IMG/VR virus record: IMGVR_UViG_3300037423_000411
Span: 1 to 64,000 of that record
DNA: 64,000 nt
Direction: 5' to 3' (one strand)
Source: a virus
The position numbers and the translations under genes are program-made. Below the pieces are notes generated by a model. That model was not told where the DNA came from. It searched no databases and worked only from the letters and a program-made list of their open reading frames with translations. Within the stretch, counting starts at the first letter, position 1. Every line of letters starts with the position of its first letter. Positions 7,982-60,478 of this stretch are shown here, one piece after another.

Positions 7982-7998
7982 GCCTATACGTACGGAGA

Positions 7999-8053
7999 AA
8001 CCCCCTGAGCGACACATGCCTGGTGAGGCGTGGTCGATATGGCTCAGGGGGTT
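7999..8053 (-). ncRNA. single TIGR-like stem-loop unit
   Basis: CCCCCTGAG-CCA-TATCGACCA-CG-CCTCA-CCA-GGCATGTGT-CG-CTCAGGGGG. Confidence 0.75.
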
Positions 8054-9121: not shown

Positions 9122-9470
9122 TGTGCCTCCAAGGGCACAGCCGTGCGCGGCCTCTACCGCGTCTGTGTCCGGCTGCCTAAATCACCGGAGTCCTCCTTCC
9201 TCATCAGTACTCGCCCCACGTCCGGATGTCCGACAGCTTGACCTCGAAGGTCGCTTCGGTCTCGTCACCGCGCTTCGGCGCCTGCGGGTGCTTGACCCAC
9301 AAGACCAGCACCGTTTCGTTGACCATCGCCGCGACAATCTCTGCCGCAGACGGGAGCTTGAGTTCGTCCTTCAGCTGCTGCCTGCTCAGCCGAACCTTGA
9401 CCACGTCTGTCAAGTCTGCCTCCTTCGTGAGAGTGAGTACAGCTTGCCAGAGGGAGGTGACAGCTGTCAA

Positions 9471-11636: not shown

Positions 11637-11652
11637 GCTCTTACGTACGGCC

Positions 11653-15866: not shown

Positions 15867-16107
15867 CGGCCAGAGCGACGAAATTATGGGCTGTGCGTAG
15901 TTACCTGGCCCTGGCCGGGCCTTGTGCTGAGCGGCATCTTTTGGTTCTCGAATGGAGCTGGCTCAGCAAGATCTTGAGTTGTCCGACGACTGAGGCGGAC
16001 AGATTTTGGTTCCTCGACTTCATTTGGCCTCAGCCAGATCTTGAGTTGTCCGACGACTTGAGGGGCGAGCGAATCTTGGCTTCGCATAAATCTCATGGCC
16101 CCTCAAG
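15867..16107 (-). ncRNA. TIGR-like stem-loop array, 4 units
   Basis: Units at 15867-15917, 15926-15967, 15990-16033 and 16057-16107, each stem-CCA-N14-16-CCA-N9-10-stem. Confidence 0.85.
15969..16058. repeat. exact 23-bp direct repeat used as inter-unit linker
   Basis: AGATCTTGAGTTGTCCGACGACT at 15969-15991 and 16036-16058. Confidence 0.95.
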
Positions 16108-16407
16108 CATCACGCTACGCGCGCACCTCTCGCGTGATCTTTCCCTGATACCTGTATGAAGGTGATCCGGGAGTGGCGAAGGGATGCAGAGGCAGAAGCC
16201 CCCTACCCCCAGAAACCGACTGGTTTCCCGGTGTAGAAGGACTCCTACGTCAAGCTGCATGAAGTATGACCGTTCAGCGGCTCGGGTACGCAGTCGTCGC
16301 CCCCTTTGCCTTCACGTACGGACTTCGGGCCGAGAAACGACACAACCCCTGTCGCGGATTAGCCGGGCCTCTGAAGGCGTTGCATATTGGCGACAGGGGA
16401 AGGTGGC

Positions 16408-21086: not shown

Positions 21087-21255
21087 GTCAACCCTCAACG
21101 GCGGACATTTACTGGGCATCTCTTAGGTTATGGCCGTTGAGGGTTGACCTCGGCATGCGTGTAGATCTTTGGCGCAAGCGACCATCTTCTGACGCACCGA
21201 GCTTGGTTGACCGGGCGGTAAGGTGTGGGCTTCGTTCACTTGTGGCCCGACCAAG
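21087..21255 (-). ncRNA. TIGR-like array, 3 units
   Basis: 21087-21148, 21149-21201 (degenerate, TCA box) and 21202-21255. Confidence 0.8.
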
Positions 21256-22226: not shown

Positions 22227-22342
22227 AACCCCCTGAGCAGCGAGTTATGGGCTTCGTAAGCTGCTGGCTCAAGGGGTTTGCTTCAGAAGAGCCCTTGAAG
22301 ACGTCGGTCACTGGAGAAACGGCAAGTTTTGGTCTTCAAGGG
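22227..22342 (-). ncRNA. TIGR-like array, 2 units
   Basis: 22227-22278 and 22292-22342, both CCA-N8-CG-N4/5-CCA-N8-YG inside stems. Confidence 0.8.
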
Positions 22343-31873: not shown

Positions 31874-32100
31874 TCAACCCCCTGAGCGTGAGCGTGTTGG
31901 GTTCGCTCGATACCCGTGTGGCTCAGGGGGTTGATTCGGAGGCGTCGGGTCAGTGGTTACACGACACGTCTGTGGCCTCCCGTAAAAGGCCCCCGAAGCG
32001 GGGTCATCTTGGGTCTCGACGCAAGTTGGCTTCAGGGAAAAGTTGTGACCTCCTGAGCGGCTTCCTTCTGTGTGAAGCACAACCCGGCTGGCTCAGGAGG
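31874..32100 (-). ncRNA. TIGR-like array, 4 units
   Basis: 31874-31934, 31938-31980, 31991-32037, 32049-32100. Confidence 0.85.
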
Positions 32101-32364
32101 TGGTCCGGTGAATCGGGCAGTCAGGATCTGGCTGACAACGGCATTGTCGCTGTCTGCGCTGCTTCTTCTGCGTCTCGTAGTCCGCGAACGCTGCCGCTCC
32201 GACGACTATCAGCAGTGTCCCTGTGAACAGCACCGCGATCGCCAGCGACCACCCTCCGAAGACGTACTCCAACCCGTTGAAGAGCCCGACACCGATCACG
32301 ACGCTCACGGCACGAAACACCATCCGGCGTCTCATCGTGCTCATCATGACCGTTGAATCGACCC

Positions 32365-32688: not shown

Positions 32689-33366
32689 GATCTGTCTCCT
32701 TCAGCGGTGAGAGTCGCTTACAGGGACAGAATGCCAGTCAAGGTTACAGCTGTCAACCCTCAGACAGGCGCGAGCCCCTGAACGCGGCAGGCACGCTAGA
32801 ACACGTCAGGGGCTCGGCGAAGGAAACCTTATCGGGTCCCTGACCGGTTGCAACAACCGGTCTGTCCGACTTTCGTGTTCCAACCTCACGATCGTACAAA
32901 CCCGCAGGTCAGGAGCTTGTAACGACCACCGAAGCGGTTCTGACCCACAAGTAACCAGCCAGTATCGACCGATTCTTGCAGACGCTTGCTACACGCTCAC
33001 GATCGACGGTTCTTCGCCCACGGCTCACGCTTCAAGGCCTCGTAGTAGACCGTCCTCCCGAGCGCGTGTACACGTCCCAGCCGCATCTGATGCCGATAGT
33101 GGTACCACGAGTCCCGAGCCTTCTCCCAACGACTCATGCCTGCCTCCTCCATGTACCGCTACCTCGCGTCATAGGTGCGAGATCGTAGCAACCCCCCAAC
33201 CTAACCGGTCACAGTTCTGTCTCGACTACCGAGCATGGACGAAGAACTCAGCCCCGAACTGCAAGAGGTCGCTGACCTGCTCTGGGAAGCAGCACACGGC
33301 GCTCCACCGCTCGTTGAGGACAAGGTCTGGTGGATGGCTGTGCGTCGAGGCTTGGGAGCGTGAGAA

Positions 33367-33578
33367 CACCCTCTGAGCGACGTCCTATGAGTTGTGTAAG
33401 GAGGCTGGCTCAGAGGGTGCTTGAGGCGAGTCGAGGCGTCTATGGAAGACACTGTTCGGTTGGACTCGCCCCCTCAGACGTGGCGACGGATTTATGTGCC
33501 TAGTCGGCGTATTGGCCTCGCCTGAGGTCTGACGGACCTGAGCGCGAAAGTTTGGCTTCCCGTACGGTATGGCTCAGG
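33367..33578 (-). ncRNA. TIGR-like array, 4 units
   Basis: 33367-33419, 33425-33470, 33473-33526, 33537-33578. Confidence 0.85.
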
Positions 33579-35068
33579 CCCTGCTTGAGCTCCCTTCAGG
33601 CAATGGATCTATGGTCCTCGCTTGGCGACTGGCCCGAAGGGAAGTTCTGTCCTCGCTGCGGGGAAAACCTGGTGCCCCGTCAACGCATCACTCATGGCAG
33701 CGAGGAAGCTTGGTTCCCGCAGACGAAAAACATCCTGGGTATCGGCAGGACTTGGTCTGCGGGAAGTCTCTAGTGCGTCTTACCCCACTGACGCAGCTTC
33801 TCAAGCATCGTAGGGTGTGTCAGCACGTCGTGCACGTAGGTCGCCTTCAGGTGCAGCCTCTCGGACTCAGGCAGGTTCCCCAGCCCTGGCATCCCCGGCG
33901 CGATCTCCTGCTCGAAGTACTTGCGCGCCAGCTCCTTGTCCACCGCAAGCGCACCGAGCGCAGCTTGCGTCGTCCCGTAGTGCACGCCCTTGTTGAACGC
34001 CCACATCCAGCACTCGCGCATCTCTTCGCCGAACGTGTCCTGCCGATCGAACTGCTGCTTGGCCTCTTCCTCCATCTCGAAGAACTCGTCCAGGTTCACC
34101 TGTTACCTCCTCTCCCACGCGTTGGTCGCGAAGCAGTCGGCACACGGCTTGGCCTGCGTACAGTACGGCAACGGCAGCATGATGAGGAACAGCCTGACGA
34201 GCACGTAGACCTTGCCTCGGTACGTGATCATGCCAACCCCTTCCTACGCCGGTTGTGCAGCTCCGCGATCGCGTACGCACGTGCCTTGTCCTGCCCCATC
34301 CCGATGCTGACGTAGCCGTCCTTGTAGTCCTTCCCCCAGCCGAGCGCGATGCACTCGTTCAGCGTCAGGTCCGCAGGATCGATCTCTGTCATCGCTCACC
34401 CCCGTCAGGCTCGGTCTTGTCTTGCACACGCGCTCGTAGCGTCTGTACGACGTACCTAGCGCCTTTCGGCAGTGCGTTAGGCCCGAAAGTTCTTTCCCGA
34501 GGCTGTATATCAAAATGCCTCTGGAGACGATCACGCAAACGGCCCTCTCCCGAAGCGTCAGAGGTCACTTCATGCCTGGTCATGTCAGCTCTTCTCCTTC
34601 CGTGCTCTACGTGCCTGCAGGTACTTCGTGATCCCTTGCCCTCGGTGCTTGAACTGCCAGGCGCAATACAGCGTCATCAGCGACGCGAGGTTGAACCCTA
34701 CGAAGTTCATCGGGTGATCGGGGAAGTACCTCGGCCCTACCGTGAACGCACCCTGTATCAGCGCTCCGACCGTCGCCATGACCCCGTAGAGGATTCTCAT
34801 CGGTACCTCCACTTGCACAGCACGATCGTCGGCCGCTTCAGGCACATGTCTTCCACCGGCTTGTACGGCTCCCACGACAGACCTCCCAACCACGCAGGCC
34901 TGCCACCCAGCATCCGCGTGCCCTTCGGAAGTACACCCCACGTCCGCGACCACTTCGTACCGAGCACCGTGATCGCGTGACCCCCTACGAACCGACTGTG
35001 CTTCTTGATCCGTACCGGGAGGCGTTTCTGTCCTGGTTTCAGGCTCTCCTGCCACAGCTTCAGCCTTG

Positions 35069-36330: not shown

Positions 36331-36387
36331 GAAGCCTCCGAGCGGAGGGTTATGGGTTCGTACCCTGCGGAGTGGCTCGGAGGCTTC
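36331..36387 (-). ncRNA. single TIGR-like unit
   Basis: GAAGCCTCCGAG-CCA-N17-CCA-TAACCCTC-CG-CTCGGAGGCTTC. Confidence 0.75.
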
Positions 36388-37172: not shown

Positions 37173-37200
37173 GGCTTGAGGATCGTCCTCCTATGACGAA

Positions 37201-37258
37201 TCCCGCTCCGAGCTTCGCGACATTGGGGATGACGCTTGTTGGATGGCTCGGAGCGGGA
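37201..37258 (-). ncRNA. single TIGR-like unit
   Basis: TCCCGCTCCGAG-CCA-TCCAACAAG-CG-TCATCC-CCA-N10-GCTCGGAGCGGGA. Confidence 0.75.
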
Positions 37259-37582
37259 CGATCTGGATTCAGTTCAGCTTGGCGGTCTCGCGTGCGACGA
37301 TCTCGCCTGCCTTCTTCACGCCGTCCGCACGCTTCGCGAACTCGTGCACGTCGCCCCGAGTCTCGCTGGCCCAGTCGTTGACCAGATACTTGTTCCCTGT
37401 CAGTTCGACGTAGGGCTTCGGCATCGTCACCAGAACCGCGACGGTCTTGCCGTTGACGCTGAAGTGCTGCACGGTGCGCCCGTACTTGTCGCGAGTCTTG
37501 TACTGAGTGACGGTCGCGTTCATTTGGTGCCTCCGAGGTGAGAGTCTCGATCTGCCCTTGCGAGTTCTATAGTGCCGTACTG

Positions 37583-37598
37583 GGTTACAGCTGTCAAC
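37583..37598 (-). promoter_or_regulatory. class I promoter: TTGACA -35 inside a 16-bp quasi-palindrome (representative of about 14 copies)
   Basis: GTTGACAGCTGTAACC; copies start at 9456, 16796, 21077, 23160, 28141, 31863, 32742, 36303, 37583, 38774, 41350, 48990, 53271, 57551, nearly all with an NANNNT -10 at 17-18 bp. Confidence 0.85.
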
Positions 37599-38190: not shown

Positions 38191-40778
38191 GATGTTTGCC
38201 TCCTCGTGAGAGAGATCTGATTCAGTACGCCTGAGCTTCGACGGCTGCTTTGACCAGCGTCTGCAGGGCCGCATCTACGATCTTCGGATCTGATCCCTTG
38301 GCGCCCGACAGGGCATACAGCGAACGACGCCCCAGGAACCCGTCAGAGCCCGCGTAGCGGTATTCCAAACCGAACTGTGCGGCGTAGTCGACCATTCCGA
38401 CAACCTCGTGCTGACGAACCGAGATCGTGACCACAACCGGCTTACCTTCGAAGGTGGCTACGTGCACGACTCTCATCGGTTCGCACGCTCTTCCTGAGCC
38501 TTGTGCAGTTCGGCCATCTTCTGCTGCAGCTGGTCGGTCATCGCGTCGCACGCGTTCTTGACCTCTTCGGCGGCCTTGGTCCAGGAGGCTTGCACATCCT
38601 GAGCAACCAGCTCCTGGTCGGCCTTTCGGCCACGAGCGGCCAGTTGAGCATCCGTCTCGGTCAACCGACGCCACCTGACGATGTCACGCCTGCGGTCGCT
38701 TGCTTTGCTCATGATTGCCTCTTTCGGGGTGAGAGACCCGTTGTTGCCCTGACTTCTTCAGGATGCCTCATTGGGTTACAGGTGTCAACCCTTAGACATG
38801 CTTGAATCGAGATCACCTGAGATTCGGTGTCTCGATCTGATGTTTCGGAGGCTTCGTCTCGCGGTGCCTGAAGTCGGTCTGTCCGTCTTGTGCGATGCGA
38901 TCTGATGTGCAAAGGCATGCCTAGAGGGGCTTGTCTGCCGACTGAATATGGCCTTGCACGAGCCTGTATGAAGTTGCCTTGAGTCCCCGCCTGTTCGGCC
39001 TTGATCTGCGGTACTTCTGAGCCTGAAAGTTGCCTCGGAAGGCTGTGGCGTCAGTTCTTTCGCGCTTGATCTGGCGTACTAAGTGCCCGACTGATCAGAA
39101 GCTTACCGCACGCGAGGTGATCCTGTGTAGAGGCGTCTCGTGTGGCGTGCGGTAAGTGCTCTGACCTGCAGGTTTGTCTCTCTCGCGTGGTGCATTGGTG
39201 TGTACGGAGGAGGTATGGCGAGAGGACGGATCTGAACTCACGCGGTGTGCATTGGGGTGTCTTGATCACGGATGGCGTGAGTGTGACTCGTTTTCTCTCA
39301 GAGTGACTCGTGAGGATCTCAGGAGGGGGTTTTTACGCTCAGCGGACCTTTCGGCCTCTCTTGTCCACATGCCTGCTTACTTCATGTGTGAACACTGCCT
39401 GATCGAGTTGAGCCTGATCTACCTGTGTGACCTTGAGGACTGGTTCGTGTCCTCTCTTCGCTACCAGCTTTGCGCCTAGTGCTAATCGTGCTTTGACTTG
39501 CTTGTGATAGTTCTCCGACTTCTTGTTCATCGTTGATTCCTTCCTGTGTGTTGACGGTTGTCACTCTCGTTTGAGTGAGAATGGCTTTTGGTAGTCACTT
39601 GATTATGAGAGTGACTGTCATGTTTTTCTCTACGGGTGTAGAGGGTTCGATCTGACTGCTTCGATGTTCGAGTTGATGAGTCGGCTGAGGTAGGTCCCTG
39701 CCTCCTGATACGAGTTTTCCCTGATGGCGAGCAAGAAACCCTGCAGCAGAGGGAGAGCTTCGTACGCGTTCAAGGTGGTGCGCAGTTGAAGCTGTACGGT
39801 GAGATCTACTGTCTGTTTCATCGTGAGGTGTGAGCACAGAGCGAGATCCTGTGCGGCGAGTGCCCAGCTGTAGTTCTCTTGAGGCATCCCCTGTGTAGCT
39901 GTCACTCCCCGAGCTTCCTTTCGAGATACTCCCTGAGCGTTGCTACCTGCCCTGCAGGGAGGTTCGGAGCGACTCTGTGCAGCCTGATCCAGTCGTAGTG
40001 CTGACCTGTCCTGATGATCGCGTGAGAGCCGCATGAGCAGTGTGCGCGTCTGAGATCTGTTCTCAGGATGTCGAGCCTGAGCAAGTTGTGCTCAAGTACG
40101 TGATCTGCTCGGTAGGGCTGCCTCATCTTCAGTACGTCCCTAGTGCGTCTTCGATGTCCTTGATGCCTTCGACCGTGTAGGTGGTGCCGTCAGCACAGAT
40201 CACCATCCAACGATCTGTGCTCTCGTAAATCGCCTTGTAGAACACTTGGCTTGTGAGATCCCACGAGTCGGTGAACCCGAGATCACTCAAGACTCTGCGC
40301 TGCTCAGGCGTGAAAGTGCTGTTGGACAGGCTCACTGCTTCTCCCACTGGTACGGGTAGGCATCGTGCATCATCCCCATGACGTCCTTGAAGCATCCACA
40401 GCACAAGTAGGCCGTGAGTGGGTGGAACGGGATATCGGTGGTCTCCTCGATCTTGTGAGCGGCTGGTGCGTTACAGCTGTTGCACCTCTCCTCACGCGCC
40501 CAGACAGGGAAAGGATGGTCTGCACGATCGTCGGTGATCATCTCGGGCTGCATGAGCTTGGCCCTGCTGATCAGGATGCTGTCGAGCAGAGGTGAGCCGG
40601 TGATGCTTGGCTTGGGTTGATCTGTCATCTCTGCAGCTCCCTGTTCGCCTTCTCCAGCGCTTTGTCGACCTGACTGAACCCACCCGCTTGTAACCCTCCA
40701 CAGCGACCACCAGAGCCCGTAGAAGCTGTCTGTAGTCCGCACCTGGTTCCCAGTCGTTGGTCATGCTCTACGTACGGC

Positions 40779-43507: not shown

Positions 43508-43515
43508 ACGTACGG
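43508..43515 (-). promoter_or_regulatory. class II promoter -10 element CCGTACGT (representative)
   Basis: Copies at 7988, 11643, 16314, 24205, 40770, 43508, 57064, 59938; four lie 5-6 nt before an ATG. Confidence 0.7.
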
Positions 43516-43731: not shown

Positions 43732-43793
43732 GTGTGAGGTCAGCTTCGGGACTTTATGGGTTTCGTTCCCTTGTCTGGAAGCTGACCTCACAC
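43732..43793 (-). ncRNA. single TIGR-like unit
   Basis: 16-bp perfect stem around CCA-GACAAGGGAA-CG-AAAC-CCA-TAAAGTCC-CG. Confidence 0.8.
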
Positions 43794-46649: not shown

Positions 46650-46677
46650 TTCGTTTACCTCCTACAACGTTTTAATT

Positions 46678-46726
46678 CCCGACAACAAAGGTCGTATGGG
46701 TAACCGAGAGGAGCTTGGTCGCCGGG
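46678..46726 (-). ncRNA. single TIGR-like unit
   Basis: CCCGGCGA-CCA-AGCTCCTCT-CG-GTTAC-CCA-TACGACCTT-TG-TTGTCGGG. Confidence 0.8.
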
Positions 46727-47258
46727 AAACCCCTGGTCATGCTTCCTGAGTGTTCGTCCAGCCTGCGTAAGTCACTTCAGCCTCGTAACCACAGTTGACG
46801 CACGTGTGTGTGGTCTCCGGTGCCTCAGTAAGGTCTTCGGCCTCGTACACACCCTCAGGAGCGACGAACTCGACCTCTTGTGTGGTCTTGCACATGGCAC
46901 AGTCCACGAGCTGTGAGAGCCGCAGAGGCTCCTGGTCTCGGTCTTCAGGGTCTTCGTCCACACGTGCCATGAGATCTAACGTTCCTCGCCGGTAGTAGTC
47001 ACTGAATTCTGGCGTCTTCATCAGGCTCGCCTGCCGGGTTGTAGAGCACCCAACCAACCTGCATCGCCGCAGAGATCATGCGATCTACGATCTCTTCACA
47101 CATGTCCATCCGCTCACCCACGAACTCGTTGCTGTCGCCGTACTGGTCCTCAAAGAGAGACTCGGCCATCGCCTTGCGTGCAGGATGATGGCGTACGGCA
47201 CACAGCTGGCAGCCTTCCGGGCTGCCGTACTCCTCAGGGTCGTGCAAGCAGTCGACGT

Positions 47259-53218: not shown

Positions 53219-53336
53219 TCCAGCCTCCTTGAGGGTGTGAGAGTCCCTTCTGCTCGACTATACCTGGTTAGTTGACAACTGTCAACCAGCGGGACAGCAG
53301 GAAGCTTAGCGCGCTTCCTGCCATCCGTCACGTTTC

Positions 53337-55734: not shown

Positions 55735-56991
55735 TCACATCAGCTCACCTGTCTTCATGTTCACCTTGTTGCCTCCCTCAGGAACGTCCAGGAAGTCGGA
55801 CACGTCCTGCTCTTCGTCGTCCAGCTCCTGTGACTCAGCGACAGACAGTTCCGTGACATCACCAGCGATCTCGACACCGAACTTGTCGTACTTGGACCCG
55901 TCGACCTTCTCCATGCCCTTCTGAGCCAGCACCTCTACGGCCTTGGCTTCCAGCGTCTTCAGCCAGTCGGTCCGGTACTCCAGAGCTTCCAGCTGCTTGC
56001 TCTCACCCTTCGGCACGTCGAAAGGAGGAGCTAACTCGTTCGGGTACTTGTAAACCCCCGCGCTGGCCTTGACGATGCCTTGAGCAACCAGGTAGCTCAG
56101 TACCGCGTGAGGCTGTGAGAACCCCTTGCCGAAGCGCACCCGCAGCTCAGCTGTGCGGAACGGATCGCCCACCTTGTTCTTGAGCACCGTGACCTTGGTC
56201 CGCACCGACGTCGTCAGGTTCTCTTCCTGCTCGGTGAGTTCGTTCTCACCCTTCTCCTTAACGTTACCGATCTGCTGGAACTCCATCCGGAGCGAGCCGT
56301 AGAAGGGGAGAGCCTTGCCGCCAGGAGAGGTCTTCTGCTTGATCCCTTGAGCCGCCATGCGCTGACCCATCGGGGTGAGATCTGCTTTGTCCATGACATG
56401 GTTCAGGAAGACAGCCGCGCAATCGGTCTGCTGCAGCTTGCCTACGATCTGACGGCAGAACTGGTGCATGAGCTTGGCTCGCTCCATGACCTCGGCCGTA
56501 CCGGTGTCGGACTCGATCTCGCGCTTGGTCACCATCGACGCCACCGAGTCGAAGATGCCCATTCCAAGCTCTCCGGTGTCGAGAAGCTTCCGGAACAGGT
56601 TCGCTCCGTGCTCGAAGTTCTTGGGCCAGAGGTAGATGAACGAAGGGTCCTTCGTGTCGATGCCGAGCGCCTGTGCGTAGTCCTTGTCGAGTGCGTACTC
56701 GTAGTCCACGAACATCACATAGCCACCAGCCTGCTGCAGCTTCGCAGCGGTCTGCAATGCACACGTGGTCTTGCCGCTCGACGGCGGACCGATCAGCTCG
56801 GTGATACGTCCCTTCGGGAGCCCTCCGACGCCCGTCACAGCGTCCAGCAGGAGGTTGCCCGTAGTGAGACCCTCAACCGGCTTGAACTCCTCCAGGACGC
56901 CGATAGGCTCCTTGTCCTTACCCGTACGCAGCTGAGTCAGCGTCTCCGCAAGCGTGAGCTTCTTCGGCTCGGCTTTCTTCTTAGGTGGCAC
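55735..56991 (-). CDS. recA: RecA-family recombinase
   Basis: GGLPKGRITELIGPPSSGKTT, FDSVA, PGGKALPFY, KNKV. Confidence 0.95.
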   Translation of the reverse strand: MPPKKKAEPKKLTLAETLTQLRTGKDKEPIGVLEEFKPVEGLTTGNLLLDAVTGVGGLPKGRITELIGPPSSGKTTCALQTAAKLQQAGGYVMFVDYEYALDKDYAQALGIDTKDPSFIYLWPKNFEHGANLFRKLLDTGELGMGIFDSVASMVTKREIESDTGTAEVMERAKLMHQFCRQIVGKLQQTDCAAVFLNHVMDKADLTPMGQRMAAQGIKQKTSPGGKALPFYGSLRMEFQQIGNVKEKGENELTEQEENLTTSVRTKVTVLKNKVGDPFRTAELRVRFGKGFSQPHAVLSYLVAQGIVKASAGVYKYPNELAPPFDVPKGESKQLEALEYRTDWLKTLEAKAVEVLAQKGMEKVDGSKYDKFGVEIAGDVTELSVAESQELDDEEQDVSDFLDVPEGGNKVNMKTGELM

Positions 56992-57092
56992 CCTCAATCC
57001 CTTCGTCTGGTGAGAGGCGCGAAGAACCAGGGCTTACGCCGCCGTTGAATGGCCTCTCATCACACGTACGGACTTCGGAGACAAGATCTGCA

Positions 57093-57136
57093 CAGAGGCG
57101 AATGCCTTAGGGGTGACGCTCCTTGTATGGCCTCTG
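57093..57136 (-). ncRNA. variant TIGR-like unit upstream of the recA promoter
   Basis: CAGAGG-CCA-TACAAGGAG-CG-TCACC-CCT-AAGGCATT-CG-CCTCTG. Confidence 0.65.
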
Positions 57137-57191
57137 AACAGCACAACACCCCCGCAGCGTCCATTACGGGGGTGTTGAGTCTTGTTGAGGA

Positions 57192-57483
57192 CTACGCGTA
57201 CTGCTTGGCGGCCTTCTTCAGCTCCTTCGCCGCGCCCTCCAGGGCCTCGGCGACGTCGGTGCCGACGACCTTCTTGTGCGAAGCCGCCTGCTTGACCGCG
57301 TCCCGCGCTGCGTTGAGGCGCTCGACCTTCTCCTCCGAGGTGAGACCGGAACGTCCCTGCAGCTCCTGCAGAGCCTCCTCCAGCGCCGCCGACGCCTTCT
57401 TGGACTCGACCTTGTAGCGAGCGTTCTGGATCGTGCTCTGCGCCGACTTGCGGAGATCGCGGCCCTTGCTGCTTCCGTACAAA
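57192..57483 (-). CDS. basic helical protein
   Basis: Class I promoter, CTCTCAC and GGAGG upstream; start approximate. Confidence 0.55.
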
Positions 57484-57607
57484 ACTGCCTCCGTGGTTGT
57501 GAGAGCCTTCATGCTCTTCGGTTGACTTGCAGACGACCTTACGGGGGTCAAGTTACAGCTGTCAACTCGGTCAGCCGTTTGAAAAAAAGTTCCTCTGGAC
57601 AGAGCAA

Positions 57608-57675
57608 GAGCCCTGACAGAACCGCTGCTCTCACACAGCGCCGCCGGAATTGACGGTCACGTTCTATCAGGGCTC
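57608..57675. ncRNA. three-way-junction RNA candidate
   Basis: 15-bp outer stem plus two inner hairpins; one minus-strand loop reads UGUGAGAG. Confidence 0.55.
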
Positions 57676-57755
57676 CGGGTCGGAGGCAGTTGACCCACAG
57701 ACTCGGAGAGTCTGCTGCTGGGGCACGAGGGTGTGTCCGCGCGCTGTTGACAACG

Positions 57756-58376
57756 TTACGCTTCGGCGCCCTCGGCCGTCAATTGCAGCACGCTAGCTGT
57801 CAGTTCTTTGCACGCTTGCGCATAGGTTTTTTCCCATGACTTAGGCGCGGTGCCTACTTCATGCGTGACGAAGCGCACAGACCTCGTACGACCCGCCAAA
57901 CACCGGATAGAAACCCAGCCGATGGCATGTGAGTCCACGTCCATCAGATGAATGTCGCGCTCACGCAGCTGCATCGTCTCTGCTGAGGTGAGTTCCATGT
58001 TGTCGCCTGAAGCTATCCCTGACGGTGGCAGTCCTGCGAGCTTGACCACCGGCTGAGGCTCAAGGCCTCGCGCCTTCAGCTCAGCCGGTGTCATGTCCCT
58101 GTCAAGCGCGTAGAACGGCTCTACCGTCAGGCCTACGAACGTCCACTCCGACGTCTGAGCTAACCCCACACTGATGACCTGAGGAGGCTGTGTACGGCTT
58201 CCTGACCTCAGTGAGGACGAGAGATACCCGGCCAGCACAGTTGCTGCTGGCACCTTCCCTGAGCCTGTCTTGAGGAGCTTCAGCTGACCTGACCGCAGCT
58301 GCTTGCTCCGCTGGACGTTGATCAACTGCGTATCCAGCTCACGATCGTCGGAGTAGACAACTACAAATCCAGCCAT
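57756..58376 (-). CDS. divergent MTA/SAH nucleosidase / nucleoside phosphorylase-fold protein
   Basis: TGSGKVPAA, VISVGLA, GIASGD, LMDVDSHAIG in the expected order. Confidence 0.6.
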   Translation of the reverse strand: MAGFVVVYSDDRELDTQLINVQRSKQLRSGQLKLLKTGSGKVPAATVLAGYLSSSLRSGSRTQPPQVISVGLAQTSEWTFVGLTVEPFYALDRDMTPAELKARGLEPQPVVKLAGLPPSGIASGDNMELTSAETMQLRERDIHLMDVDSHAIGWVSIRCLAGRTRSVRFVTHEVGTAPKSWEKTYAQACKELTASVLQLTAEGAEA

Positions 58377-58879
58377 CCAGCCTCCTCCGAGAGAGCTGTC
58401 ACACGAATGATCGCGCCCTCCCGCTCCCCGTAGACCTTCTGAGACGGTCCGACGCGTACAGCTAGAGCGTCGTCCTTCCACACACCGGCAGCCGTCAGTG
58501 CGTCAAACGTCGACCGGAACAGCTTATCGATATCGCCCTTGGAATGATTGGTGACGTAAAACGGAGCGTCGTCTTTCAGGAGATGTGCATTACGGCCAGT
58601 GCGATAGTGCGCCTTCGGCCGTTTGAAGATGAAGGTGATCGCGATCTCACAAGGCCCTTCCCACGGAACCCAACCGTCACCCACCTCCTCCTCGGCGGCC
58701 TTCTTCACGTCGGTACGCCAGGAGGAGACCTTCGCGGAGTTCTCCGACATGGCAACCTGACCCGTGTACTCGCCAGCCTTCTTGATCGCCCAGCCTCGCT
58801 TGCTGCCCTGAGCACCTGGGGTGCCGAACACCCGGAAGGACACGTCGAACCCGGTCATCGGGTCAGGTTGCACTGTCAT
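58361..58879 (-). CDS. RusA-like Holliday junction resolvase
   Basis: PGAQGSKR, RPKAHY, DIDKL..STFDAL, VWKDDA. Confidence 0.88.
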   Translation of the reverse strand: MTVQPDPMTGFDVSFRVFGTPGAQGSKRGWAIKKAGEYTGQVAMSENSAKVSSWRTDVKKAAEEEVGDGWVPWEGPCEIAITFIFKRPKAHYRTGRNAHLLKDDAPFYVTNHSKGDIDKLFRSTFDALTAAGVWKDDALAVRVGPSQKVYGEREGAIIRVTALSEEAGWLDL

Positions 58880-59880
58880 CAGAGATCCAGAATGTCCTGC
58901 AGAGACATCATGGCGTCGGCCTTCTTCGGCTCGTCCTTCTGCTCCTGCGGCAACGGAGCTGCGAACTCGGCCAACGGGTCAGCCGAACTGCCAGGGGTAG
59001 GATCCGGGGCCTCGGTCACTGCAGGCGTCGGAACAGTGTCCTGCACCTTCGGCTCTTCCTTGACAGGCGTGTCACCGAGCAGACTCGACACGTCGACAGC
59101 AGGAGCAACGTCGATGATCGTACCGTCAACCTTCCGGCCCATCGCGATCTCGTACCGCGACAGCACACGGCTGAGGTCCTCTTCGACCTGCTCACGCGTA
59201 AGACGGCGACCGAGAGCCGCGTCCAGGTTCTCCAACTTGTTGTTCTTGTACGCGAGCTTGACCTGTTCCATGCGAGCATCCGACTTCTGCCACTCGCACT
59301 CACCGGCCATGTTGATGTCGTACTTCTGGTACTGCTTGCTTTCGCACGGGCCGATGTTCAGGTCCCGCGTCTGCAGGTTGCCCCACTCCTTGGTGAGATC
59401 GATCAGCGTGTTGAACCGGGAGTCGGTGAACGACCACGTAACGATCTCGATGTTGAACGGGTCCTGAATCAGGAACGAGCCGACCTGCGTCTTGTATCGC
59501 AGGATGTTCATCGCGAAGCGTCGCTGCGGACCCTGAACAGCATCCGACTCCTTCGACGCCTTGCAGACCGGGCAGTTCTGCACGTCCACGCCCTGGTCGG
59601 CCAGGATGTTGATGTCACCGACACAGATGTGCTGACCGATGAAGTCGGTCTTCATGACCTCACGGGCTTCGGTGCTGCCGTCCTTGTTCCTGAAGTTCTG
59701 CGTCTCCATGACGGCCTTGCCGTTCACGATCTGAGGAGCGCGCAGCGTGTGAACGAACTGGTACTCAGGCTCACCCTCGATGCAGGAGACACGAGCGCGC
59801 TCGCCCTTCTCCAAGCTGAACTTGTTGAAGTCGTACTGCGACTTCACCCGATTCTCGTCCGTGAAGGTCATCTTCGGCAT
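58879..59880 (-). CDS. single-stranded DNA-binding protein (gp32-like)
   Basis: H..C...CPVC Zn ligands, RFAMNI, QKYDI, acidic Pro-rich tail ending LQDILDL. Confidence 0.7.
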   Translation of the reverse strand: MPKMTFTDENRVKSQYDFNKFSLEKGERARVSCIEGEPEYQFVHTLRAPQIVNGKAVMETQNFRNKDGSTEAREVMKTDFIGQHICVGDINILADQGVDVQNCPVCKASKESDAVQGPQRRFAMNILRYKTQVGSFLIQDPFNIEIVTWSFTDSRFNTLIDLTKEWGNLQTRDLNIGPCESKQYQKYDINMAGECEWQKSDARMEQVKLAYKNNKLENLDAALGRRLTREQVEEDLSRVLSRYEIAMGRKVDGTIIDVAPAVDVSSLLGDTPVKEEPKVQDTVPTPAVTEAPDPTPGSSADPLAEFAAPLPQEQKDEPKKADAMMSLQDILDL

Positions 59881-60478
59881 GTACGTATCCTCGATCTGTC
59901 TGAAAGGCGGGACTCGCCTTAGGTCGAATTCACTTATACGTACGGCGATCTGATCTTGTTACGACGCACCCAGCCGAGAAATTCCTGTCACCGTGACCTT
60001 GTTCACCGGCGTGATCATCTCGATCAGGTTCCGCATCTCCTGCTTGGAGACATCACCTTCGCAGTACTTGCCCAGCTCAATCATCGTCAGCTGTGCATCC
60101 TTGATCTCCTTGTCCGTCAGCTCACGGACAGGTGACGCGTCGCTTCCCAAGTTGTCCACCCTCATACCTCCGTCGTTCCTGTGTCTCGGTAGTCGTTCCA
60201 GCCCTCAGGACGTGGCTCCAGCTCAGCCTGCTCCACGATCTCGGACTGACGCTCGGCCAGTAGGAGACGCTCCTGAGCCTCCTTGTCGTCCTGGTTGTTC
60301 CCCCGAACCTCGTAAGCGTTCTTCGGCATGCGCTCAGTGGCCTTGAGCAACTCGATACGCTGCTTCGCCTCCCAGCAGTTGTGGTGATAGGCGGCCTTGA
60401 GCTTGCCGTTGTCGAAGACGATCTTCGCCCGACGTTCTTCTGTTCCCTTGGCGATACCTCTACGGCACTGGAAGCACT

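Follow-up and report, generated by a model that had tools for sequence, protein, structure and literature searches.

A candidate same-strand antisense element with two exposed loops ahead of an early gene in a 134-kb soil phage

In satellite P4, immunity control involves the CI RNA, a same-strand antisense RNA of c4-like design. For the c4 RNA of phages P1 and P7, it is described that loop b′ occludes the ribosome-binding site while loop a′ binds an upstream sequence, and that the RNA lies on the same strand as its target and is cut from a longer transcript (PMC5320573); the operon order is given as c4-icd-ant (PMC8198154). A related logic is reported for the lysozyme gene e of T4. A complement of its ribosome-binding site is located upstream of the promoter that serves the gene, so that long transcripts stay silent while those begun at this promoter are translated (PMC3014915). 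The same source gives early-message inactivation at Shine-Dalgarno sequences, as infection proceeds, as the proposed role of T4 RegB (PMC3014915). The OxyS-fhlA interaction is described as a two-site kissing complex, in which one contact sequesters the ribosome-binding site (PMC2946933, citing Argaman and Altuvia 2000).

Words conserved near start codons form a second background. In Cluster K mycobacteriophages, many non-structural genes are preceded, at a distance of 3-7 bp, by the Start-Associated Sequence (SAS) GGGATAGGAGCCC (Pope et al. 2011, PMC3203893). According to that report, each K1 phage has one SAS copy in the opposite orientation, and what reads SAS was left as 'either RNA or protein' (PMC3203893). 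In Cluster K and in Cluster EF Microbacterium phages, SAS/ESAS are presented as unusually conserved words located at the ribosome-binding site of many non-structural genes or beside it, in a single orientation (PMC3203893, PMC7302621). In the passages of the literature that deal with 'start associated sequence', no antisense RNA is proposed, and a literature search on Cluster K RNA-seq returned nothing useful.

The window analysed here is the first 64 kb (64,000 nucleotides) of the 133,696-bp virus record IMGVR_UViG_3300037423_000411. The record has direct terminal repeats and a G+C content of 59.7%, and nearly all of its genes are on the minus strand. We tentatively read positions 57607-57715 as a same-strand bipartite anti-leader antisense module, which would block the ribosome site of the adjacent early gene and possibly those of other early leaders. 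Judged from sequence, this reading is plausible, with doubt slightly outweighing belief.

Of four DNA runs compared with the window, three others from soil or rhizosphere contain pieces of the same sequence, with zero variant letters. The phage RecA reaches at best 33-36% identity with GenBank phages, the top matches being mycobacteriophages, and RecA relatives at 64-83% identity exist at the protein level. No relative was found among GenBank phages by near and distant DNA searches and by a search with the 96-aa protein encoded next to the element, nor in IMG/VR, where the queries were the 96-aa protein, RecA (alone and as an alignment) and the words of hairpin B and of the promoter, nor in JGI metagenome contigs (scanned twice) and species genomes. 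The sole IMG/VR match (L003) was judged a chance match, because it has one promoter word only and its RecA matches at 26%.

The element is located in a gap of 275 nt between an ORF of about 206 aa and the early gene for the 96-aa protein. Along the minus strand, the features of the locus are:

59938..59945, minus strand: CCGTACGT motif, ahead of the 333-aa / RusA / 206-aa operon
58879-59880, minus strand: gene of a 333-aa protein of no family, first gene of the RusA operon
58361..58879, minus strand: RusA-family resolvase gene (Pfam PF05866, E 6.2e-15)
57756..58376, minus strand: upstream ORF of ~206 aa, start uncertain, between RusA and the element
57697..57715, minus strand: hairpin H0, 8-bp stem GCAGACUC/GAGUCUGU with loop UCC (RNAfold)
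57677..57696, minus strand: hairpin A, GGGUC-AACUGCCUCC-GACCC, adjoining the 5′ side of the junction (RNAfold 57566-57760)
57607..57676, minus strand: three-way junction, 16-bp closing stem with a terminal G-U, junction GUGA (4 nt)
57628..57635, minus strand: loop B UGUGAGAG, reverse complement of CUCUCACA
57582..57604, minus strand: weak 4-bp hairpin CUCU-GUCC-AGAG, then a U7 run (RNAfold)
57536..57565, minus strand: early promoter-like site, TTGACA-18 nt-TAAGGT, inside a repeated GTTGACAGCTGTAAC box
57498..57505, minus strand: target site B CUCUCACA, within the 96-aa gene leader
57483..57492, minus strand: target site A GGAGGCAGUU, Shine-Dalgarno sequence and spacer, abutting the UUG start
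57192..57482, minus strand: target gene, 96-aa helical protein, UUG start at 57482-57480
57177-57144, minus strand: terminator hairpin of the 96-aa gene

Past the 96-aa gene, a second CCGTACGT motif at 57071 (57064-57071) is followed by RecA, again on the minus strand. The initial annotation had put the element at the 3′ end of an SSB-RusA operon that follows a class II promoter. A RusA operon does lie upstream and its RusA call agrees with the Pfam match, with the ~206-aa ORF intervening before the element; the promoter corresponds to the strand-biased CCGTACGT motif at 59945. The SSB label of the 333-aa gene was not supported, since the protein matched no PHROG and, at E<=5, no Pfam family, SSB included. 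The ~206-aa ORF matched no Pfam or PHROG family, and the 96-aa protein belongs to no known family. The folded element would form the 3′ untranslated region of the ~206-aa ORF, and hairpin H0 is the first structure past the stop codon of this ORF. Directly ahead of the element there is no promoter of either class recognised in this genome, which counts against its role as an antisense RNA. A small protein gene in the 275-nt gap was considered and rejected, as no ORF with a Shine-Dalgarno sequence was found there.

For positions 57600-57685 of the minus strand, RNAfold gave a minimum free energy (MFE) of -45.9 kcal/mol with a z-score of -5.20; 0 of 200 shuffled sequences were as stable, and the MFE structure made up 0.54 of the ensemble. 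The junction carries hairpin C (CCGUC-AAUUCC-GGCGG) and hairpin B (CGCUG(U)-GUGAGA-(G)CAGCG). The outer U and G of loop B close as a wobble pair in RNAfold, leaving six bases fully unpaired. In hairpin A, every base of the 10-nt loop AACUGCCUCC (57691-57682) is unpaired with a probability of at least 0.97. Sequence and hairpins of the junction are thus as the initial annotation described them, and its 15-bp stem extends to 16 bp.

On the plus strand, the same positions folded at -37.4 kcal/mol (z -3.38). The loss of 8.5 kcal/mol comes from two G-U pairs of the 15-bp stem, which turn into A-C mismatches. The G-U pairs and the predicted fold energies together support a preference for the minus (gene) strand, which was also the annotation's choice. 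Its alternative variant, a decoy RNA from the plus strand whose loops would show copies of GGAGGCAGUU and CUCUCACA and titrate whatever binds the leaders, is disfavoured by the same numbers. The plus strand does fold (-37.4 kcal/mol, z -3.4) and both words would be in loops. However, besides the weaker fold with its mismatches, nearly all genes are on the minus strand, both promoter motifs are minus-biased (16 vs 1 and 21 vs 3), and a scan that is insensitive here found no promoter-like site in the plus direction. We regard a decoy as very improbable.

Known RNA classes did not account for the fold. ARAGORN and Rfam, the latter at gathering thresholds and at E<=10 over 57450-57800, gave no match, so tRNA, tmRNA and known ribozymes or riboswitches were rejected. 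The genome also has a family of hairpin units with unrelated stems of 10-16 bp and a loop of ~30 nt (28-33) that starts with CA and contains a CGA..CCCAUAA-like core. Such units were seen on the minus strand at 7999-8053, 15867-16399, 21087-21254, 22227-22342, 31874-32101, 33365-33765, 36331-36387, 37200-37259, 43732-43793 and 46676-46728, and in several of these CA...CCCAUAA units the 3′ arm extends into the -35 box of an early promoter. The element was rejected as a member of this family, as its loop is 38 nt long, starts with GUGA, is without the core and contains two inner hairpins.

The two open loops match the leader of the next gene. Loop A is, over 10/10 nt, the exact reverse complement of GGAGGCAGUU (57492-57483), a word that occurs a single time in the 133,696-bp genome; GGAGGCAGTT also has one genome occurrence. 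Loop B is, over 8/8 nt, the exact reverse complement of CUCUCACA, 5 nt upstream of site A in the same leader. The order is colinear and antiparallel, with loop A located 5′ of loop B on the element and site B 5′ of site A on the leader. Predicted duplex energies are -21.3 and -16.4 kcal/mol, versus opening costs of 3.6+0.03 and 6.0+2.4. The loop complementarity noticed in the initial annotation, UGUGAGAG against CUCUCACA, stands, and loop A, located shortly beyond the annotated coordinates, adds a second match to it.

Features of the pairing itself also count against the antisense reading. Site B is partly paired in a 5-bp stem with a mean unpaired probability of 0.35, so that in the folding model it is half buried, and full 10-bp pairing by the 10-nt loop A needs strain or opening of the stem. 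The MFE fold of 57620-57470 showed no significant structure (z 0.04), in a tool that is blind to pseudoknots; the loop-leader contacts are absent from the RNAfold prediction because they would be pseudoknot or kissing contacts, which RNAfold cannot predict. Loop C (AAUUCC) was rejected as a third contact, since it matches only GGAA in target codons 2-3 and in the wrong order.

The early promoter of the 96-aa gene sits between the element loops (57691-57628) and the sites (57505-57483). The layout might also be read at the level of DNA, as nested inverted repeats around an early promoter that serve as protein-binding sites or that are a recombination scar, e.g. an inverted partial copy of the leader. 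Two repeat pairs do bracket the promoter symmetrically. Yet 123-190 bp separate the arms, the stems in between contain G-U pairs that are meaningful only in RNA, and a simple inverted duplication would retain the 5-nt spacer and not 46 structured nucleotides. Hence, we find a DNA-level element barely credible.

A serious rival is that structure alone matters. The three-way junction with its flanking hairpins, as the 3′ end of the RusA operon, would then be a terminator, an insulator, or a barrier to exonuclease or RNase III that sets the operon apart from the early unit behind it, with loop complementarity that has no function. If the 16-bp stem stacks on hairpin B (6 bp), the helix would be ~22 bp long, and 61 gene-strand hairpins have stems of at least 11 bp. 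Many of the 16 early promoter boxes have a strong hairpin 10-20 nt ahead of them, and complementary loop pairs of 7-8 nt are not rare by chance. At the other early promoters the upstream antisense match is 5-8 nt (13 of the 16 were evaluated; two had no start found), so the idea that an antisense element of its own stands upstream of each early promoter was rejected as a general rule. The two-loop design is a one-off in this genome, because the other early promoters are without a matched upstream antisense partner. The rival stays serious because so many early promoters follow strong hairpins and none of the others has a matched partner.

As for the terminator, an intrinsic terminator with a U-tract within 0-2 nt of a G+C-rich stem was rejected, since the U7 run begins 19 nt past the closing stem and no U-tract adjoins the stem. 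A terminator scan of the minus strand over 56900-58600 found no site, and the weak hairpin at 57582..57604 was not called; the latter, with its U7 run, might mark a weak 3′ end or be A/T-rich sequence ahead of the promoter. Moreover, structure alone fails to explain why a whole 10-nt loop equals the unique Shine-Dalgarno and spacer word of the next gene, and why this leader is matched, in the correct order, by a second loop as well, and a plain barrier needs no three exposed loops. We consider structure alone rather unlikely.

How far the antisense match is from chance was estimated in several ways. In gene-strand RNA of the whole genome there are 5 copies each of GUGAGAG and CUGCCUCC, and only one pair lies within 100 nt; about 0.019 ordered pairs within this distance are expected. 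The loops of the 61 gene-strand hairpins with stems of at least 11 bp total 1,452 of 133,696 nt, and 2 of the 5 GUGAGAG copies are in such loops versus 0.054 expected. The second looped copy belongs to a terminator with a 19-bp stem and a U-rich tail (genome 87560-87607, minus strand, loop AAGUGAGAGG). This terminator ends a single-gene unit, 88494-87619, whose leader hairpin loops CUCUCAC, so that a 7-nt 5′-3′ contact would be possible within one message.

A control from the hairpin side took ~2,080 small hairpins per strand, with reversed words and the plus strand as controls. Ten-nt complements from a loop to downstream sequence were found once on the gene strand, once with reversed words and once on the plus strand, with ~1 expected per strand. 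Colinear complements of 7+7 nt from neighbouring loops showed no excess (6 vs 8 in controls). With at least 8 nt for each of two neighbouring loops, the element is the only gene-strand match genome-wide, and the controls gave 1 match in 3 scans. Scaling to 10+8 nt gives ~0.02, and requiring that the target be a ribosome site gives roughly 1e-3, which is an estimate and not a computed p-value. It is only the 10+8 length together with the landing on a ribosome site that brings the estimate to this value, and it should be discounted further because the candidate arose from a whole-window scan for curiosities. The coincidence is thus roughly near 1 in 1000 and not astronomically rare.

The site of loop B contains a tag shared by early leaders. 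In the whole genome, CTCTCAC has 39 gene-strand copies versus 5 on the other strand, ACTCTCAC has 18 versus 0, and GACTCTCACC, with 10 copies, is the joint most frequent 10-mer. The tag stands 2-18 nt before the Shine-Dalgarno sequence (GGAGG) in 24 leaders, 17 of them inside the window. In the MFE folds it is in a hairpin loop in 15 of the 24, with short flanking stems that differ in sequence (ggg/ccc, gcg/cgc, gag/ctc), and several of the other leaders have CUCU paired with the GGAG of their Shine-Dalgarno sequence. In the leaders at 38212, 28099, 15458 and genome 68661, which are without flanking stems, (U)CUCU is predicted to pair with the leader's own GGAG(G). From these folding models, the CUCUCAC tag itself may be a weak cis anti-Shine-Dalgarno element.

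Two strand-biased promoter classes go with these leaders and with the operons. The early promoter box GTTGACAnnTGTnAC has 16 gene-strand copies versus 1, and a CTCTCAC leader comes next in 13 of the 16. A T7-type promoter reading of 'cactatag' was rejected, because this is the -10 region of the TTGACA-type promoters. The -35 regions at 9456-9470, 32742-32756, 37583-37597, 53271-53285 and 57551-57565, and 11 more genome-wide (minus strand), are embedded in the near-palindrome GTTGACAGCTGT(A/C)AAC, and the copy at 53272-53285 is a perfect palindrome, readable on both strands; the near-palindrome could double as an operator. The CCGTACGT motif has 21 gene-strand copies versus 3 on the other strand, and is also found at 43508-43515, 40770-40777, 11643-11650, 7988-7995 and other sites of the minus strand. 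It is often located 4-6 nt before an ATG that has no Shine-Dalgarno sequence, e.g. CCGTACGTagagcATG, which suggests, from sequence, a second promoter class giving leaderless messages.

The initial annotation had proposed a middle-phase sRNA that silences about 18 early mRNAs by loop-loop kissing. In its widest form, this is a discrete RNA acting in trans as a master off-switch of all 17-24 early messages. Complementarity to loop B reaches at least 7 nt in all 24 tagged leaders, for loop A 8 of the 24 contain GGAGGCAG (8 nt) or a longer match, the motif is looped in 15, and 2 of the 5 GUGAGAG copies are in long-stem hairpin loops (the second in the terminator 87607-87560). The position behind an operon of the CCGTACGT type also fits later synthesis. 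However, middle-phase timing rests only on this place behind a promoter-like motif, and the full match is confined to the neighbouring leader, the other 23 matching loop B over 7-8 nt and loop A over 4-8 nt. GGAGGCAG has 27 gene-strand copies, of which only ~8 are in tagged leaders, and it also stands before many genes that have no tag. Moreover, in some leaders the two sites are just 2-3 nt apart, and the loops are at opposite ends of a ~22-bp helix, so simultaneous binding of both loops needs unfolding. The number of candidate targets proposed earlier thus agrees with the tagged leaders (24, with 17 in the window), while the full 10+8-nt match holds for the adjacent leader only. Nor is kissing general, because the motif is looped in only 15 of the 24 leaders and the best target is not among them. 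We consider a master off-switch quite improbable. A paralogue of the 96-aa protein is encoded at genome 68641-68300 (45% identity over 40 aa, E 2e-6), behind another early promoter, and the leader of this paralogue is the next-best partner of the two loops, with 8+8 nt.

According to the antisense reading that we prefer, a rigid three-way junction and the neighbouring hairpin would hold two single-stranded loops open. Loop A AACUGCCUCC would pair with the Shine-Dalgarno sequence and spacer of the 96-aa early gene, loop B (U)GUGAGA(G) would bind that leader 5 nt further upstream, at the CUCUCACA tag, and both pairings together would hide the ribosome-binding site. RNA of the RusA operon would carry the element, either as a 3′ tail or by read-through into the early gene, and silencing of the 96-aa gene could occur in cis on the read-through RNA or in trans on early messages. 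Since the early promoter is located between the element and the target, messages from this promoter would be without the element and hence would be translated. The analysis shows the fold with its strand preference, the exact and correctly ordered complementarity, the open loops and the place of the promoter; we infer that the element RNA is made, that it pairs with the leader and that the pairing represses. If this reading is right, a weaker and wider action on other CUCUCAC...GGAGGCAG early leaders is conceivable, and we lean modestly against it.

Cluster K mycobacteriophages offer a possible parallel. In Mycobacterium phage Anaya, SAS has 16 forward copies and 1 reverse, with 0.76 expected. 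The reverse copy is in the strongly structured gap of 385 nt between gp96 and gp97 (z -5.96), which follows an intrinsic terminator, and on the gene strand it forms the 10-nt hairpin loop CCUCCUAUCC (record 59850-59902). Among 20 of the 182 Cluster K records, picked for spread, this anti-SAS hairpin aligns in 16; Yuna, KiSi, Keshu and SirPhilip, in which the hairpin is deleted or unalignable, were left out of the alignment. Several pairs of the outer stem are changed on both sides. In 10 of the 20, the anti-SAS word CCUCCUAUCCC is present in the loop; in 5 the loop is pyrimidine-rich and only partly complementary, and in 1 (Marshawn) it is unrelated.

Covariation between loop and SAS across Cluster K subclusters was rejected, as GGGATAGGAG is unchanged in five non-K1 genomes, with 16-17 copies forward and 0 reverse, while their loops differ; the loop is therefore not indispensable. 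The predicted alternative word was absent as a leader. Compared with our element, words and lineages differ, and the antisense loop is not beside an SAS gene and is not present in all subclusters. Hence, the Cluster K loop is a lead for a recurrence of the design and not a proof of function. Large lytic-type phages might tag their early leaders and encode, behind a later operon, a small structured RNA whose loops mirror tag and ribosome site, as an RNA-only early shut-off, and the same logic would explain SAS of Cluster K. We consider this generalisation unlikely. Cluster K phages are cultured and genetically tractable, which makes the idea of RNA shut-off testable there.

If the antisense reading is true, a two-loop RNA decides which transcripts of an early gene are translated, by promoter of origin or by time, and it might help to turn off the whole set of tagged early messages. 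It would also suggest, in concrete form, what might read the conserved start-associated leader words of actinobacteriophages.

The closest likeness is with c4 RNA. The element is upstream of its target on the same strand, and is a compact multi-stem structure with two exposed loops, matching 10/10 nt over the Shine-Dalgarno sequence and spacer and 8/8 nt at a site 5 nt upstream. It has a closing stem and two hairpins, compared with ~77 nt, three stem-loops and release by RNase P in c4. Yet a search of all 133,696 bp with the Rfam C4 model (RF01695, threshold 45 bits) found nothing at E<=10, and the element is not a C4 family member. In contrast to c4, the loops of the element are on separate domains, one on a hairpin and one on a junction arm, a promoter intervenes between element and target, the target is a 96-aa early protein of no known family and not icd/ant, and there is no sign of an immunity region. 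The same-strand antisense design would, if the reading holds, be widened from immunity control in temperate phages to an early-leader signature in a 134-kb soil phage.

The intervening promoter is the likeness to T4 gene e, as the complement of the ribosome-binding site is located upstream of the promoter of the 96-aa gene (box 57565-57536). It is the c4-like layout combined with this gene e-like promoter that led us to read the element, tentatively, as an antisense silencer of the adjacent gene. The T4 inhibitor is one strand of a simple hairpin, whereas the element has preformed loops for a pseudoknot or kissing contact, and timing in T4 is early-off and late-on, whereas the promoter served here is early. 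With OxyS, the element shares two short loop contacts, one of them on the ribosome-binding site; OxyS differs in being a bacterial, Hfq-assisted, trans-encoded stress sRNA whose second site is in a coding region. RegB is a protein nuclease cutting GGAG, whereas the agent here would be an RNA that masks the site. If so, this RNA-only switch would achieve through base pairing what in T4 is the task of the RegB nuclease.
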